Below, piece by piece: positions 13,822-57,833 of a stretch of 64,000 bases of DNA (its first letter is position 1; every line of letters begins with the position of its first letter). The notes under the pieces were generated by a model that was not told the origin of the DNA, ran no database searches, and saw only the letters and a list, made by a program, of their open reading frames with translations. The position numbers and the translations under genes are program-made. The stretch is from Enterobacteria phage vB_EcoM_IME540: the sequence record MT150133.1; one strand, 5' to 3'.

Positions 13822-13841
13822 ATTATACTCCAAGGGAGGAA
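13822..13841. repeat. perfect 18-bp palindrome GGGAGGAATATTCCTCCC between genes 45 and 44
   Basis: read directly; followed on the minus strand by GGAGTATAATG (-10-like) and the SD of gene 44. Confidence 0.5.
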
Positions 13842-13857
13842 TATTCCTCCCTATGCT

Positions 13858-23362: not shown

Positions 23363-23836
23363 TCATTTAAGCGATTTCCTCAGTTGTTTTTTGAATGAAT
23401 CCACCATTTGTTTCTTAGTGTCAGATTCATTATAAGTCATTCCATGTGAAAGCATTTCAGCAATCATTTCTTCCTTACCCAACCTGCTGAACTCTTTGGT
23501 TTTATCAGGAACGAAATTAGGATGAATATTGTTTTCAGTATAATCAGCTTTCAGATAGACCAGCAAATTCTCTAACCATTCGAGGTAGTCAACGTTTTGA
23601 CCTTTAAGACCAGAACGGTTGAACTTATGCTTCATTTGTCCTTCTGCAGCATTGCACAGGTTACATAGTAAACCACGAACCTTACCGGCTTTTGGCCCGT
23701 TTAACTCGTGGTCGTGGTCAAGGTGGTTACTTTGAACATCAGGGTTTAATTCACGTTTACAAATCAAACACTTACCACATTGTGCATCATAAAGTTTTTG
23801 TTTTTCTTCTTTGTATAATTTGCCGGTCAACAACAT
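23363..23836 (-). CDS. 49: endonuclease VII (Holliday junction resolvase) gp49
   Basis: 157 aa; MLLTGKLYKEEKQK...HLDHDHELNGPKAGKVRGLLCNLCNAAEGQ nearly identical to T4 endo VII. Confidence 0.95.
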   Translation of the reverse strand: MLLTGKLYKEEKQKLYDAQCGKCLICKRELNPDVQSNHLDHDHELNGPKAGKVRGLLCNLCNAAEGQMKHKFNRSGLKGQNVDYLEWLENLLVYLKADYTENNIHPNFVPDKTKEFSRLGKEEMIAEMLSHGMTYNESDTKKQMVDSFKKQLRKSLK

Positions 23837-23871
23837 AATAAACCCTTACCATTATTAGATAAGGGTATTTA

Positions 23872-24081
23872 TTATTTTTCAAATGTACTATAAAACGAGC
23901 GATGCAACCGTTTAAATTGTCGAAGCATCTTTTTAGTAGGACGGGTGTATAATCCTACACAGGTGGCCATAAACTGGTCGGTAGGACTTCCTTTAATAAG
24001 AAGTTTCCAGACCTTACCACCGTTTAACTTTTCGGTATAAATCAATTCAGTTTTCATAGTAAAACCCAAACTCCATATCAA
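23872..24081 (-). CDS. hypothetical protein (69 aa)
   Basis: coding-strand ORF. Confidence 0.4.
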   Translation of the reverse strand: MIWSLGFTMKTELIYTEKLNGGKVWKLLIKGSPTDQFMATCVGLYTRPTKKMLRQFKRLHRSFYSTFEK

Positions 24082-28683: not shown

Positions 28684-29208
28684 TTATGCGAGAACCGTCT
28701 TTAAACGCTCTTCAAATTTCTGAAGCAGAGCTTGGCGTTCAGCTCGTTGTGATTTGTACTGCTCGATACGACCTGAAGTGAGGGCGTACTGTTCGTTTAC
28801 TGATTCCCGCATGAATTCAGGAATCTCTTTACAAGCTTTGATTTCGTCAAACTTATCAATAACAGCTTGTTGTTCAGCAATCAGATTATCGAAATAAGCG
28901 ATATCAGATTTAACGTTTGCCAGGTCGGATTCGGTAGGCATTAAACGTTTGTTACGTTCAGCTTGATAAGCTTGATTGGTTTCACGGCTCCAGTGAAGAG
29001 TACGTTTTTTGTTGGTGTTTTTATAGAGCTCTACAATACCAACTGAATCGATGATAACAATCCAGTTCCAACGGCTTTTGTAAATCTCTCCTCCAGATAC
29101 AGTAATCTCATTACCACAAGCAACGTCGTTAAAGAACTTGCTTTGTTTTTCAGATTTGAAATTACCGTTGTTGAAATTAATCAGTGAAAAAATATCTTTA
29201 GCGTTCAT
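28684..29208 (-). CDS. hypothetical protein (174 aa)
   Basis: coding-strand ORF preceded by a promoter element. Confidence 0.5.
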   Translation of the reverse strand: MNAKDIFSLINFNNGNFKSEKQSKFFNDVACGNEITVSGGEIYKSRWNWIVIIDSVGIVELYKNTNKKRTLHWSRETNQAYQAERNKRLMPTESDLANVKSDIAYFDNLIAEQQAVIDKFDEIKACKEIPEFMRESVNEQYALTSGRIEQYKSQRAERQALLQKFEERLKTVLA

Positions 29209-29234
29209 GATAACCTCCAGTAGTTGATATGTCT

Positions 29235-29263
29235 ATAGTATCATTTCTACTGGAGATGTAAAC
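29235..29263 (-). promoter_or_regulatory. early promoter element (GTTTAC-N17-TACTAT)
   Basis: family member: gtctatagtatcatttctactggagatgtaaac. Confidence 0.55.
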
Positions 29264-38597: not shown

Positions 38598-39056
38598 TCA
38601 CAAGTAAATTACTTTCGTGCTGGTTTTACCTTCTAAACGTTTAGAGTTAACAAATGCCATACGACATTTAAGGGAATATCCTTTATCAGGATGTTTACGG
38701 TCTACTGTCATACCTAGCCATAAGGTTTTATCGGTAATTTCGAGACGCAATGGCCGATACACTTTACCAGGGACAATTTCGGATTCTACATCAGGCAGAG
38801 GTTCCTGGATTAAGAATTCATGGATTTCTTTAACATGGTTATGGAGTTGCTTGAATAAAGCAAAAACGTATTTTTCGTCGATTTCACGTTGGATAGCACG
38901 GTCCAACAAGTGGTTAGAGTACTTAATAAAGAAGGCTGGGACTCCGCTCTTAATGGCGGCTTTTTTGATGGACGTATTCAGTTCACGGAATTCGGTTTCG
39001 AACTGACGACGTAATTTATTGCGGCGGATGAATACTTCTGAATTAATTTCTGACAT
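38598..39056 (-). CDS. regB: endoribonuclease RegB
   Basis: 152 aa; EVFIRRNKLRRQFE...HLLDRAIQREIDE matches T4 RegB. Confidence 0.85.
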   Translation of the reverse strand: MSEINSEVFIRRNKLRRQFETEFRELNTSIKKAAIKSGVPAFFIKYSNHLLDRAIQREIDEKYVFALFKQLHNHVKEIHEFLIQEPLPDVESEIVPGKVYRPLRLEITDKTLWLGMTVDRKHPDKGYSLKCRMAFVNSKRLEGKTSTKVIYL

Positions 39057-39084
39057 TTTGTAATCTCCTGTAGTTGATAGGTCT

Positions 39085-39113
39085 ATAGTACCACGTCTAC
39101 AGGAGATGTAAAC
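39085..39113 (-). promoter_or_regulatory. early promoter element (GTTTAC-N17-TACTAT)
   Basis: family member: gtctatagtaccacgtctacaggagatgtaaac. Confidence 0.55.
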
Positions 39114-40793: not shown

Positions 40794-41093
40794 TTAGAAA
40801 GAACCAGAACCTCTAATTGTGTTCTGGCGACCTTTATTTTCTAATTCGGAGTGGTCGATTTCATATGCTTGTGCTACGCCAAAGGCCTTTTTAACTTTAG
40901 CTAAAGAACCTTTAGATGTAACAATATTAAAAGTATTACCTTTGGTAAAATCAACAAAATCGACTTGTACGCCCTGTTTACCGAGGCTTGCTACAATAGC
41001 ATCAACATATTCTTGGTCTAAATTGCCTTGAACTCCAATTTGAAATGCTTTAGGAGCTTTGGCTTCTGTGATAAATTCTTGATAAGTTTTCAT
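40794..41093 (-). CDS. internal-protein-like capsid-targeted protein (IPII/IPIII region)
   Basis: N-terminus MKTYQEFITEAK matches the T4 internal-protein capsid targeting leader MKTYQEFIAE; sits beside denV as T4 ipII/ipIII do. Confidence 0.6.
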   Translation of the reverse strand: MKTYQEFITEAKAPKAFQIGVQGNLDQEYVDAIVASLGKQGVQVDFVDFTKGNTFNIVTSKGSLAKVKKAFGVAQAYEIDHSELENKGRQNTIRGSGSF

Positions 41094-41136: not shown

Positions 41137-41553
41137 TTAAGCGTAAATAGCCTTGCCATAATGTTTGTACCAGGTAGGACGCTGTGCAATTTTTTCATCC
41201 AAACGGGTCTGAGATATAGCAATAGAAGCTTCGTGTGGAGTATAGTCACCACGGAATTCCTGAGGAATGCCACTAATGTCCTGGACAGTAGTATCCTTGA
41301 TATTAAAACCACGTTTTAAACATTCGGCTATAAGCTCAATTTGTCGCTTACGTAAAAATTCAAGCTTATCGTAAAAGAATGTAACATGGCCTGTGCCAAG
41401 GATAAAAGTAGGACTGATTTTGAAATCACGGACACGTTTACCATTAGCAACATGCTTACGAACTGCACCGAAAACACGTGGTAATTCACGATATTCAGCC
41501 ATTAAGTGTTGGTCGGCCAATTCAGATACTAAGGTAAGGTTGATACGAGTCAT
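41137..41553 (-). CDS. denV: endonuclease V (pyrimidine-dimer DNA glycosylase) DenV
   Basis: 138 aa, essentially identical to T4 DenV ([29 protein letters not shown]...). Confidence 0.95.
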
Positions 41554-41581
41554 TTTTTAATCTCCTGTAGTTGATAGGTCT

Positions 41582-41610
41582 ATAGTATCATGCCTACAGG
41601 AGATGTAAAC
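41582..41610 (-). promoter_or_regulatory. early promoter element (GTTTAC-N17-TACTAT)
   Basis: family member; the adjacent TATAAATA at 41612-41619 is formed by the last codons of the upstream ORF. Confidence 0.55.
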
Positions 41611-42009
41611 TTATTTATAGGTTTTCATCCAATTCTTGAACAAAGCTGCGACGTCTTTCTCTTTAACGTTCAGTTTAACGTCCAACATTTTACCACCGGC
41701 AGCACGTGTCTGACGAATCTTAGCAGTACCGGTTTCGCCATTCCACTCAACATAATACTGTCCGGTGTTCATTGCAATACCGTCGCCGTAGTCTTCATTT
41801 TTAGAAGTGGTGAATGCCAGCTTCATAGTCTTAGATACACGAGCCTGCATGCCTGTCTGAAGGGCATTACGAACGCGAATAACCTGAGGAGTGGCCTGGG
41901 TCAGGTTTTCATTCAGTTCTTCAGTGAACTCTTCAGATTCAAACATCGCCAAAAGTTCTTTAGATGCAGGAATTACATTCTCTGCGATAAATTCATTATA
42001 AGTTTTCAT
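41611..42009 (-). CDS. internal-protein-like capsid-targeted protein (132 aa)
   Basis: N-terminus [11 protein letters not shown] (CTS-like leader). Confidence 0.6.
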
Positions 42010-42490
42010 ATGCTTTCCAAGTACCTGTTTTAAATGTGGAAATCACGCGCTTAGCACGATTAGGAGTTTGTTTATACCAACGGGATTGAGCCAGGTTAAC
42101 TGCTGCATCATCCCAACGTTTTTGCTGAAGCATACGCAGAGAGTTAGTGAACCCTGCTACGCCTGCTTCACCCATTTGGAAGACCATGTTAATTAAAGCA
42201 CAACGACGAACTTCGTCCAGTACATCATAAACAGGTTTCAATTTAGGATTACGCAGAATAGCTCTACGAGCATTTTCAACCGACCGGTTAAAGAGTTGTT
42301 CGGCTTCAGCCATAGTAATACGACCATTGCAAACTCGACCCATAAGCTTATCAAGTTCAGCCCGAGCAACATCTTTAGAAGGATTCTTAGTAATCAATTG
42401 GCCAATACCAATAGTATAGTATCCCTCAGTATCCTTATATAAGTCTAATTTACAGCCTTCATCAAGGCGTAACATATCAAAAATATCCAT
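41996..42490 (-). CDS. e: lysozyme (endolysin) E
   Basis: 164 aa; [12 protein letters not shown]...[13 protein letters not shown]...[14 protein letters not shown] matches T4 lysozyme. Confidence 0.95.
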
Positions 42491-42520
42491 AATACCTCCT
42501 GAGTATAGGAGGTATTTATA
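42491..42520 (-). promoter_or_regulatory. gene e leader: late promoter TATAAATA overlapping an SD-sequestering hairpin
   Basis: minus strand TATAAATA-CCTCCTATACTCAGGAGGTATT-ATG; inverted repeat ACCTCCT/AGGAGGT pairs the SD. Confidence 0.55.
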
Positions 42521-42970
42521 TCAAAAGAGCGAGTCTAAAACCTTAAACATCGACGGGCCCATGACATATTCCCATTGAGGTCGTTTAATCAAGGCGAACG
42601 CATCGAATTCAGGAATAGTACGACCCTCAGGGAATGTATGGTAAGCCGTACATTTGCAATCCTTGAACTGCTCGTGTTCCACAGGCACCGTATATAAGAA
42701 CAGATGTAGATTCTTATTGCTTGAATATTTGAACTCACCTAGGTCTTTCAGGAATGCAGGATCGTATGCTGTGAATCCAATCTCTTCTTCGGTTTCGCGC
42801 ATTGCCGCTTGAATAGGCTCTTCGCCTGGTTCGACATGACCTTTAGGAATGTCCCATTTATGACGCATATTCTCTGGATTACGAGAGCCTGTTACACGAC
42901 CCATGACCAGTTCTTTATCAACGGTCATGAATAAAATACCTGCCGATAATTCCTTAGCTTTCTTACTCAT
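42521..42970 (-). CDS. nudE: Nudix hydrolase NudE
   Basis: Nudix box GHVEPGEEPIQAAMRETEEEIG; start trimmed to MSKKAKEL (149 aa). Confidence 0.8.
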   Translation of the reverse strand: MSKKAKELSAGILFMTVDKELVMGRVTGSRNPENMRHKWDIPKGHVEPGEEPIQAAMRETEEEIGFTAYDPAFLKDLGEFKYSSNKNLHLFLYTVPVEHEQFKDCKCTAYHTFPEGRTIPEFDAFALIKRPQWEYVMGPSMFKVLDSLF

Positions 42971-44705: not shown

Positions 44706-44742
44706 TTTATTCTCCATTTCACTCTGTTGTTTTGATAGGTCT

Positions 44743-44771
44743 ATAGTATCACACCTATAGACCTTGTACAC
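44743..44771 (-). promoter_or_regulatory. early promoter element variant (GTGTAC-N17-TACTAT) with perfect inverted repeat
   Basis: ggtctatagtatcacacctatagacc: 9-bp inverted-repeat arms GGTCTATAG / CTATAGACC. Confidence 0.45.
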
Positions 44772-44783
44772 TGTTTTGTGCAA

Positions 44784-45743
44784 TTATTTTTCGAAAGGAC
44801 GAATTAAATGTTGGTTACGCTTAAACCGTTCAATGTAGTCGTTTTCACCTAAAGTCTTGTACATATTAACCACAGCTTGGTAGTTTTCCCATGCATAAGT
44901 GCGGAACCAACCTGAAGTGATTGAGGTGCACACTTTCTCAAGGGCCATATAGAAACTTAATGATGGTGAAATATTGAAGTCATTAGGAACCTGTGAACGT
45001 TCTAGTGCCAGGACACAAGTTTCTTCATACACACCAGCCAGTTTAATAGCTTCAGGCAAAGCCTCGAACTTCTCACGAGAGGTCATGACTTCAGAACCTT
45101 CCTTCATATAAAAGGTATATGCAGGGCGCCCTGCCAATGCCACTGCTTCATGGATAGAGTCGTGGTCCAGAGTATAAATGGGATCATTAAAGAACGATGA
45201 TTTGTTTACATCCAATTTAGGGTGGGAATAGCTCAACGTTTCTTTTTGACGTTGCAACATAATTTCCTGGAGTTCTTCGTTAAGGGTGATACCTTTATTA
45301 CGAAGGTATTTGATGTGGGACATGGTTTTCAAGAAGAACGGATTATTCTTCAAGAAACGATGGGAGGTTTTGATAGCCAGACAGATATCAGGGGTTGCCC
45401 AATAGAAACCTGTAAGACGGTCCTTTTTAATATGATTTTCGGCATATTTCAGGAGACGATAACTTGAGGTGAAATCTTCGTCTTGAAGCTCACCGGTAAT
45501 TTCTCGTACGTTAGTCAGGGCACGAACGATATAAGCTTCAAAATAGGTTTCTTTACCATTGTACATGCATTTAAAAGCCTGGACATCAGGGTTATCCACA
45601 GGAACATGGGCACCAAACATCCGAGCTTTAAAGTGATTCCATGAGCCTTGGTCGGCAATGAAATCCCAATCAGAATTTTCGATATGCTTACTTTCAATCA
45701 GACCAGCGTGGTGCAGTGCACGAGAACCAATAACTAACATCAT
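44784..45743 (-). CDS. hypothetical protein (~320 aa)
   Basis: start trimmed to MMLVIGSRAL with GAGGA SD. Confidence 0.55.
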   Translation of the reverse strand: MMLVIGSRALHHAGLIESKHIENSDWDFIADQGSWNHFKARMFGAHVPVDNPDVQAFKCMYNGKETYFEAYIVRALTNVREITGELQDEDFTSSYRLLKYAENHIKKDRLTGFYWATPDICLAIKTSHRFLKNNPFFLKTMSHIKYLRNKGITLNEELQEIMLQRQKETLSYSHPKLDVNKSSFFNDPIYTLDHDSIHEAVALAGRPAYTFYMKEGSEVMTSREKFEALPEAIKLAGVYEETCVLALERSQVPNDFNISPSLSFYMALEKVCTSITSGWFRTYAWENYQAVVNMYKTLGENDYIERFKRNQHLIRPFEK

Positions 45744-56748: not shown

Positions 56749-57185
56749 CCTAATTTTTTCAGTGAGTTTTCGGTAATCAATCTGAAATTAATTCCCATTT
56801 TATCTGCTGTAGCTTTAGCAGCTTTCCATTTATCTTTATTTACACTCCATGTATAATGTTCGTTGATATATCTCTTTTTAGCAGCTGTAGTCATTTTAGC
56901 AGGCGCCGCTGGAGGATGGGTCTCTTTAAAAGGTTTGACTTCGAAAAAGAATTGTTGACCATTGTCGAACTTCACCCAGAAGTCCATAAAATACCGACGT
57001 TTCTTTCCATCAGCGTTACTAAAATATGGAATCACAACCTCTTCCGAGTTCCACTGGACGACATTAGGATGGTTATCAAGCCAACGCATAAGCCATGCTT
57101 CCCAAGAGGAACGATATTGGATTTTCTTCCAATCACCTTTATATTTTTGTAAGTTTGTAGGTTTAAATTTCCCTGAGTAGGCCAT
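56736..57185 (-). CDS. 4: head completion protein gp4
   Basis: 149 aa, syntenic; size matches T4 gp4; GGAGGCACTATG initiation region. Confidence 0.8.
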
Positions 57186-57230
57186 AGTGCCTCCTTATAA
57201 ATATTAATATTATTTATACTCGGAGGCACT
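57186..57230. promoter_or_regulatory. divergent late promoter region between genes 4 and 53
   Basis: TATAAATA on both strands (57196-57203 plus; about 57209-57216 minus) flanked by inverted repeat TAGTGCCTCC / GGAGGCACTA carrying both SDs. Confidence 0.55.
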
Positions 57231-57833
57231 ATGCTCTTCTCATTTTTCGATCCCATCGATTACGAATCAAAAACAGTCAAGCCAGATTCCGGCTCATTAA
57301 CTGATGCCGATGTACTGAGCGTACCGATGACTGATATATTTAGAAACTATAAAGAATATTTTGATAAAGTGGCTAAAAATTATACACTTAAAACATATTA
57401 TATCAGTGGGGCCCCTCGTCCAGAAGAATTAGCCCATCAACTTTATGGTAACGTGCAATTATATTGGGTCCTTTTAATGTGTAACAATATCTATGACCCT
57501 TATTACGGCTGGATTACAGGCCAAGAATCTGCGTATCAAGCAGCTATTCAACGTTATGCTACTGCAGGCGGAAACCAAGTCCTTTATCATGTCAATGAAA
57601 AGGGTGAGAAATTCTGGAATCTAGTAAATACTCCGGAAAATCCTTATACTTGGTACGATAAAGGTGATACAGAAAAACGTTATCCTCAATATGAAGGTCC
57701 TTTGGCTGCAGTAGATATTTACGAGGACGCCATTCGTAAAAATGAATATAAGCGCGAAATAAAGATTATAGACCCTAATGACATCGAGTCCTTTGTTTCC
57801 GCTTTAATTAGAGAAATGGAGAAGTCACTCTAA
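57231..57833 (+). CDS. 53: baseplate wedge protein gp53
   Basis: 200 aa, syntenic immediately before gene 5; late promoter upstream. Confidence 0.8.
   Translation: MLFSFFDPIDYESKTVKPDSGSLTDADVLSVPMTDIFRNYKEYFDKVAKNYTLKTYYISGAPRPEELAHQLYGNVQLYWVLLMCNNIYDPYYGWITGQESAYQAAIQRYATAGGNQVLYHVNEKGEKFWNLVNTPENPYTWYDKGDTEKRYPQYEGPLAAVDIYEDAIRKNEYKREIKIIDPNDIESFVSALIREMEKSL

Follow-up and report, generated by a model that had tools for sequence, protein, structure and literature searches.

The 64,000-nt stretch of phage DNA analysed here, referred to throughout as the window, carries directly upstream of its gene e a leader that we read as the Dhakavirus (JS98-group) version of the translational switch of T4 gene e; we put the probability of this reading at about 0.88. 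The anatomy of the sequence, the energetics of its folding, the orthology with T4 and a conservation that includes compensatory change are shown by the analysis. The switch itself is already known, and the leader is an orthologue of a textbook device.

Early transcripts from upstream promoters, the nearest of which is a cassette at about 44.78 kb, would run through nudE into e. On such read-through RNA the anti-Shine–Dalgarno (anti-SD) segment AAUACCUCCU would pair with AGGAGGUAUU, burying the Shine–Dalgarno (SD) sequence up to position −1 of the AUG, and the buried SD would allow no premature lysozyme. At late times, polymerase carrying gp55, the phage late sigma factor, would recognize TATAAATA (42520-42513). 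Transcription would then begin some 6 nt further on, within the 5′ arm, at 42507 or 42506. The resulting late mRNA would be without the anti-SD, so that its SD would be open and e would be translated. The role of the element would thus be to prevent the making of endolysin from early read-through RNA, and so to contribute to the correct timing of lysis. The 5′ ends of the transcripts, the early read-through RNA and the translational outcome in this phage are expected by analogy with experiments on T4 (reviewed in PMC3014915).

Anatomy of the e leader and its locus

The features of the locus, all on the minus strand, are the following.

44737-44785, minus strand: T4-type early-promoter-like cassette, the nearest upstream, with GTGTAC, 17 nt, TACTAT and a TGTGA extension (from the sequence)
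42521-42970, minus strand: nudE, Nudix hydrolase, an early gene (Pfam NUDIX; synteny with T4 and JS98)
42513-42520, minus strand: late promoter box TATAAATA, T4-type, gp55-dependent class (from the sequence; box definition in PMC1524935 and PMC2988020)
42507-42516, minus strand: 5′ arm of the hairpin, AAUACCUCCU, the anti-SD (folding; pair counts across relatives)
42506-42507, minus strand: predicted late transcription start (from the rule that the box occupies −13 to −6)
42501-42506, minus strand: hairpin loop AUACUC, 6 nt (folding)
42491-42500, minus strand: 3′ arm of the hairpin, AGGAGGUAUU (sequence and folding)
41996-42490, minus strand: gene e, endolysin of 164 aa, T4 lysozyme orthologue (Pfam PF00959; identity with T4)

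Gene e begins with the ATG at 42490-42488, and its product shares 75% identity with T4 lysozyme e across the full length of 164 aa, with a match to the Pfam family Phage_lysozyme. The open reading frame (ORF) at 41137-41553 has a Pfam match to the denV glycosylase family, and the gene order nudE, e, internal-protein-like ORF, denV is that of T4 and JS98. Over 1.2 kb the region reaches 95.7% identity with phages of the JS98 group (genus Dhakavirus), which by sequence places the phage of the window as a JS98-like Dhakavirus. Two neighbouring minus-strand ORFs, 41611-42009 and 40794-41093, have no Pfam match, and the second has the N terminus MKTYQEFITEA; both have the look of internal head proteins with the T4 capsid-targeting leader, and the JS98 homologue of the second is annotated as an internal head protein. 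The first of them shares 14 nt with the end of e, and a TATAAATA box (41612-41619) overlaps its stop codon.

The leader itself, read on the minus strand from 42520 to 42488, is TATAAATA-CCTCCT-ATACTC-AGGAGG-TATT-ATG (in full, TATAAATACCTCCTATACTCAGGAGGTATTATG), which matches exactly the sequence given in the earlier note; taken from 42523 down to 42482, the strand reads CTCTTTTGA TATAAATA CCTCCT ATACTC AGGAGG TATT ATG GAT ATT. The space between nudE and e is 30 nt, and all of it is late box and hairpin. The box abuts the nudE stop codon TGA (42521-42523), its last 4 nt are also the first 4 nt of the 5′ arm AAUACCUCCU, and the SD sequence GGAGG (42495-42499) lies within the 3′ arm AGGAGGUAUU, which reaches position −1 of the AUG. 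The inverted repeat that the same note had described over the SD is real and longer than it had stated: by RNA folding, AAUACCUCCU and AGGAGGUAUU form a perfect stem of 10 bp with a 6-nt loop, which reaches from within the late box to position −1 of the AUG.

Taken alone, the hairpin has a folding energy of −10.5 kcal/mol (z = −3.27), a stability equalled in 2 of 200 shuffles, and in a context of 70 nt the minimum free energy is −14.1 kcal/mol (z = −1.81). It is among the four perfect stems of at least 10 bp with loops of 3-10 nt in the window, where dinucleotide shuffles give 1.2 ± 1.6. The box TATAAATA is not enriched in the window (6 copies vs 7.9 expected), so the motif count by itself is no proof. 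No Rfam covariance model matched at E ≤ 1 between 41500 and 43500, and Rfam has no family for this leader. Counts of box and hairpin within the window are thus weakly informative; the feature stands above chance because it is conserved across relatives, and it is the comparative data that carry the argument.

The cassette at 44737-44785 is 2.2 kb upstream of the e leader on the same strand and is the likely source of read-through transcripts. From 44.78 kb down to e the minus-strand ORFs are tightly packed or overlapping, and a terminator scan gave no minus-strand terminator-like site between the cassette and e; the sole minus-strand call was a weak one inside the e coding region. This layout makes early read-through into e plausible. 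When up to 3 mismatches are allowed, the early element TGATACTATAGACCT, an extended −10, matches the window 15 times, compared with 2.1 expected. Of these matches, 14 lie on the minus strand, as exact copies at 695, 33723, 41590, 44751, 50027 and 53753 and at 8 further sites, and the family agrees with the T4 early −10 motif TGTG(A/G)TA(C/T)(A/T)AT. A perfect 10-bp palindrome, AGGTCTATAG/CTATAGACCT, joins the promoter spacer to the −10/+1 region at two places, 44737-44764 and 53739-53766.

Opening costs and conservation of the hairpin

We calculated by RNA folding the opening cost of the start region, that is, the free energy needed to make the segment from GGAGG through AUG single-stranded. 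For read-through RNA with 60, 150 or 300 nt of upstream sequence, the cost is 13.1-14.0 kcal/mol, vs 2.6-3.3 kcal/mol for RNA that begins 5-8 nt past the box. This comparison of early and late 5′ ends is the check that had been proposed from the sequence, and its outcome agrees with what was claimed. The accompanying statement that late transcripts starting just after TATAAATA would be without the 5′ arm holds for a start about 6 nt past the box and fails for a start 1 nt past it, for which the cost is 8.4 kcal/mol because a 6-bp stem, CCUCCU/AGGAGG, remains.

The mechanism depends on the rule that the T4 late box occupies −13 to −6 (Nolan et al. 2006, PMC1524935; see also Geiduschek & Kassavetis 2010, PMC2988020), as the start is needed about 6 nt past the box. 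By this rule, the predicted +1 is 42507 or the adjacent purine 42506, with opening costs of 3.15 and 2.79 kcal/mol, respectively. A start at 42507 strips 9 of the 10 nt of the arm, and either start strips 9-10 of 10, leaving a predicted late leader of about 17 nt, UAUACUCAGGAGGUAUU, without the anti-SD. The same calculation on the T4 leader gives 14.9 kcal/mol for read-through RNA vs 3.9 and 1.2 kcal/mol for its two late starts. Because the costs are alike, the element of the window behaves quantitatively like the characterized one of T4.

Two features could limit the switch. T4 late promoters prefer AT-rich sequence after the box, and box variants with A at −13 are in use (PMC2988020). The e box is followed by the GC-rich CCTCCT and every other TATAAATA in the window by AT-rich sequence, so the e late promoter may be weak. 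The nudE stop codon lies 4 nt from the stem, and a ribosome that terminates there might unwind part of the 5′ arm, with some leakiness as a result.

Conservation was assessed on 13 distinct leaders, drawn from 22 IMG/VR loci that encode close relatives of e, from records of Karam-, Moon-, Jiaoda- and Tegunavirus, and from T4 and the window. Scanning IMG/VR again, with a conserved peptide pattern of e, yielded no contigs beyond those already found. Lysozyme loci L024-L081, which have about 30% identity, lie on non-T4 contigs and have uncertain gene starts, were left out as not being e orthologues. In all 13 distinct leaders, xATAAATA abuts or overlaps the 5′ arm of an SD-covering hairpin, with hairpin energies of −10.6 to −16.6 kcal/mol, and in the 11 distinct leaders aligned (11/11) both ATAAATAC and the SD are invariant. 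The records cover the genera Tequatro-, Dhaka-, Karam-, Moon-, Jiaoda- and Tegunavirus; the seventh, Gaprivervirus, was assigned to loci L007, L014 and L022 on the basis of a close match to Gaprivervirus TH15 at the end of nudE and in the late box. The e leader of the window is identical in four Dhakavirus-like IMG/VR contigs, and several sequenced Dhakavirus genomes have it unchanged, among them QL01 and IME281.

Pairs were counted on a manual, structure-aware alignment of the 13 sequences, with slid partners as the control. Paired cells made up 79.8%, vs 36-52% in the slid controls, and three pairs show double-sided changes among the 13 sequences, a number reached in 8 of 500 shuffles. One clade, probably Gaprivervirus, has a compensatory change from U-A to C-G in the middle of the SD (CCCCU/GGGGG). 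In several genera the helix has slid, losing the basal AAUA/UAUU pairs and gaining apical AUC/GAU pairs. Covariation is modest because the SD is constrained in any case; the alignment nevertheless indicates that the pairing has been kept in evolution, with compensatory changes.

Some relatives have no such hairpin. In the e leader of an Aeromonas T4-like phage, late box and SD hairpin are absent, the SD is free and a terminator-like hairpin lies upstream. The leader of a phi92-like phage has neither late box nor SD hairpin; both cases agree with the list of phages without the structure given by Uzan and Miller (PMC3014915). In two records of the phage collection, and only there, an ORF for an HNH endonuclease with NUMOD3 is inserted at the e leader: at 1262-2032 of locus L106 (Gaprivervirus TH15, MT446392) and at about 208-960 of locus L107 (Dhakavirus 04086, OR842557). 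The insertion point is right past (T/A)ATAAATAC of the e late box (past TATAAATACC in 04086), equivalent to 42511/42510 of the window, and the HNH ORF replaces the SD hairpin of e, overlapping the e start with its 3′ end. The first codons of e in 04086 give MNIFEM, as in the insert-carrying TH15, and those of the window give MDIFDM. From box to HNH ATG there are exactly 5 nt in both TH15 and 04086, so that the predicted late +1 falls on the A of the HNH ATG, and the late mRNA of the endonuclease is possibly leaderless. The HNH gene in place of the hairpin in two related phages and the Aeromonas T4-like phage without a hairpin indicate that the e hairpin is not indispensable, and the rare HNH alleles could serve as ready-made tests of its importance.

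Four other explanations of the leader were weighed against the switch. A stable hairpin right past the nudE stop codon might mark the end of the nudE early operon, as an intrinsic terminator or as a 3′ stability element, rather than act as a translational operator. We consider this very unlikely, as no U tract follows the stem (the tail is AUGGAUAUUUUUGAU), the terminator scan made no call there, the 3′ arm is the SD of e itself and ends at −1 of its AUG, and early RNA of T4 reportedly continues into e (PMC3014915); the absence of a U tract and the negative scan led us to reject the intrinsic terminator. Somewhat less improbable, although still unlikely, is that the hairpin on early RNA mainly guards the GGAG of the e SD from cleavage, by RegB for example, or sets the half-life of the mRNA, with the block to ribosomes being secondary. 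RegB targets GGAG in the SDs of T4-type early mRNAs (PMC3014915), the SD of e is GGAGG, and the JS98-group genome encodes regB. Such protection is, however, compatible with translational repression rather than exclusive of it; the late box is placed such that late RNA loses only the anti-SD, which fits the translational model and not protection, and the roughly 100-fold reduction in T4 was attributed to inhibited initiation (PMC3014915).

That the inverted repeat acts as DNA, as a recognition or homing site of an HNH endonuclease or as a structure that modulates the promoter, draws on the insertions in 04086 and TH15 right past (T/A)ATAAATAC. This has about the same slight chance as a terminator: being a target does not amount to a phage function, insertions are uncommon (2 records), and the conservation of the hairpin obeys the rules of RNA pairing, with G-U pairs and compensatory changes. 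Least probable of all is a functionless coincidence of a palindrome and TATAAATA in an AT-rich genome. Neither the frequency of TATAAATA, which is no commoner than chance, nor that of such hairpins, about 1.2 of which are expected in shuffles, speaks against it; yet box and hairpin are jointly conserved in place across seven genera whose flanking sequences diverge, the helix shows compensatory change and sliding, and the element is orthologous to the experimentally characterized one of T4. The comparative data effectively refute chance, which we rejected on the strength of conservation.

Related arrangements elsewhere in the window

Two other minus-strand leaders in the window have a late box inside an SD-covering hairpin. 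The homologue of gene 49 (endonuclease VII; ORF 23363-23836, Pfam PF02945 and PF09124) has a leader at 23837-23890 with the late-box variant AATAAATA (23873-23866) inside the 5′ arm. Its hairpin has −15.5 kcal/mol (z = −2.98), and the opening cost is 16.5 kcal/mol for read-through RNA vs 4.3 kcal/mol for the predicted late RNA; the gene 49 switch is a known T4 case (PMC3014915). The other belongs to a seg-like ORF of 221 aa for a GIY-YIG/NUMOD3 homing endonuclease (51033-51698, in the stretch 51033-51745), which sits between tRNA-Met (51740-51810) and tRNA-Arg (50953-51027), where JS98 has tRNA-Asn. Here a CATAAATA box at 51728 lies within a hairpin of −18.6 kcal/mol (z = −5.46) that buries both SD and AUG, with opening costs of 14.8 vs 2.8 kcal/mol. 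This case, too, is known from T4, as it resembles segB (PMC2988022), and its hairpin differs from that of e in being stronger and in also burying the AUG.

A comparable pairing occurs with early promoters. Cassettes of the form GTTTAC-ATCTCCTGTAG-..-TACTAT-AGACCTATCAA-CTACAGGAGAT-..ATG at 41553-41610, 39056-39110 and 29208-29262, all on the minus strand, precede denV and two ORFs that start at 39056 and 29208, respectively. The promoter spacer of each cassette contains an anti-SD, which pairs with the SD of the gene that follows. Their opening costs are 9.6-18.6 kcal/mol on read-through RNA vs 2.9-7.4 kcal/mol on RNA from their own early +1. The cassette at 29243 has a compensatory T/A swap (TCTCCAGTAG/CTACTGGAGG), and the spacer–SD pairing of denV is conserved in T4 and JS98. 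Published descriptions of PeSL have the stem-loop upstream of the promoter (PMC2839356, PMC4122927), and a search of the available literature for early-promoter spacer–SD pairing and for a denV leader hairpin found no description. We raise tentatively, and with more doubt than confidence, that the e leader may be one case of a genome-wide grammar in which translation is allowed from a gene's own promoter only, late or early. If so, read-through RNA would be silent, and RNA from a cassette's own early promoter would be open. The e leader would in addition be a site of insertion for the HNH homing endonuclease, with possible leaderless late expression of that gene and natural alleles of e that have no hairpin.

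Several further symmetrical elements were seen in the window. Between the diverging homologues of gene 4 and gene 53 (57183-57233) there are back-to-back TATAAATA boxes, one on each strand (plus, 57196-57203; minus, 57211-57218); as the two leaders are near-identical and end in GGAGGCACTATG, the whole intergenic region is one long palindrome. An intergenic perfect inverted repeat at 52141-52166, AAAGGTTCTT-6 nt-AAGAACCTTT, lies on the early strand and is not followed by a U tract. At 13833-13852 there is a loop-less palindrome of 20 bp, AGGGAGGAAT/ATTCCTCCCT, with SD-like sequence on both strands.

Comparison with T4 e and other known systems

Experiments by McPheeters et al. in 1986 (NAR 14:5813) are said to have shown the mechanism of late promoter and SD hairpin for T4 e. 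In T4, early transcripts that extend into e form an inhibitory structure that lowers synthesis about 100-fold through inhibited initiation, and transcripts from either of two late promoters, without the 5′ portion, are well translated (Uzan & Miller 2010, PMC3014915). For closely related T4-type phages, leaders of this kind have been predicted in which the region of the 5′ strand holds a late promoter (PMC3014915, Figure 5A); our literature search found nothing specific on the e leader of JS98.

The T4 leader, TTTTATAAATACCTTCTATAAATACTTAGGAGGTATTATG, is homologous to that of the window. In both phages the gene comes directly past nudE and the late box overlaps the 5′ arm, and the T4 3′ arm with its start codon, AGGAGGTATT-ATG, is identical to AGGAGGUAUU-AUG of the window. 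T4 has two TATAAATA boxes, the second in the loop, whereas the window has the upstream box only, with TATACTCA in the place of the second. The T4 stem is of 11 bp with one G·U pair and a loop of 8 nt, compared with the perfect 10 bp and 6-nt loop of the window. The orthology of e, the identical 3′ arm, the T4-like opening costs and the published account of T4 (PMC3014915) together bear out the earlier note in its view that the leader reproduces the classic control of T4 lysozyme. Conceptually, the leader adds nothing to that control; it shows that the JS98/Dhakavirus group has the element whole, with one promoter, and that the design is kept across seven genera of the Tevenvirinae. The comparative set of leaders can aid annotation, as it marks the true start of e, the late promoter and the regulatory hairpin.

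Rho-independent terminators and PeSL cassettes of T4-like phages (Arbiol 2010, PMC2839356; Comeau 2014, PMC4122927) are likewise short, stable, intergenic hairpins linked to promoters. Unlike these, the e hairpin has no U tract, and its promoter, a late one, is located in the stem rather than after it. A late promoter inside a hairpin at the ribosome-binding site is also found in T4 genes 49, soc, I-TevI/II/III and segB and in mobE of Aeh1 (PMC3014915; Edgell et al. 2010, PMC2988022). These cases are like e in that read-through RNA is folded and silent and late RNA is without the 5′ arm, and they differ from it in that they concern other genes, with stems of unrelated sequence.
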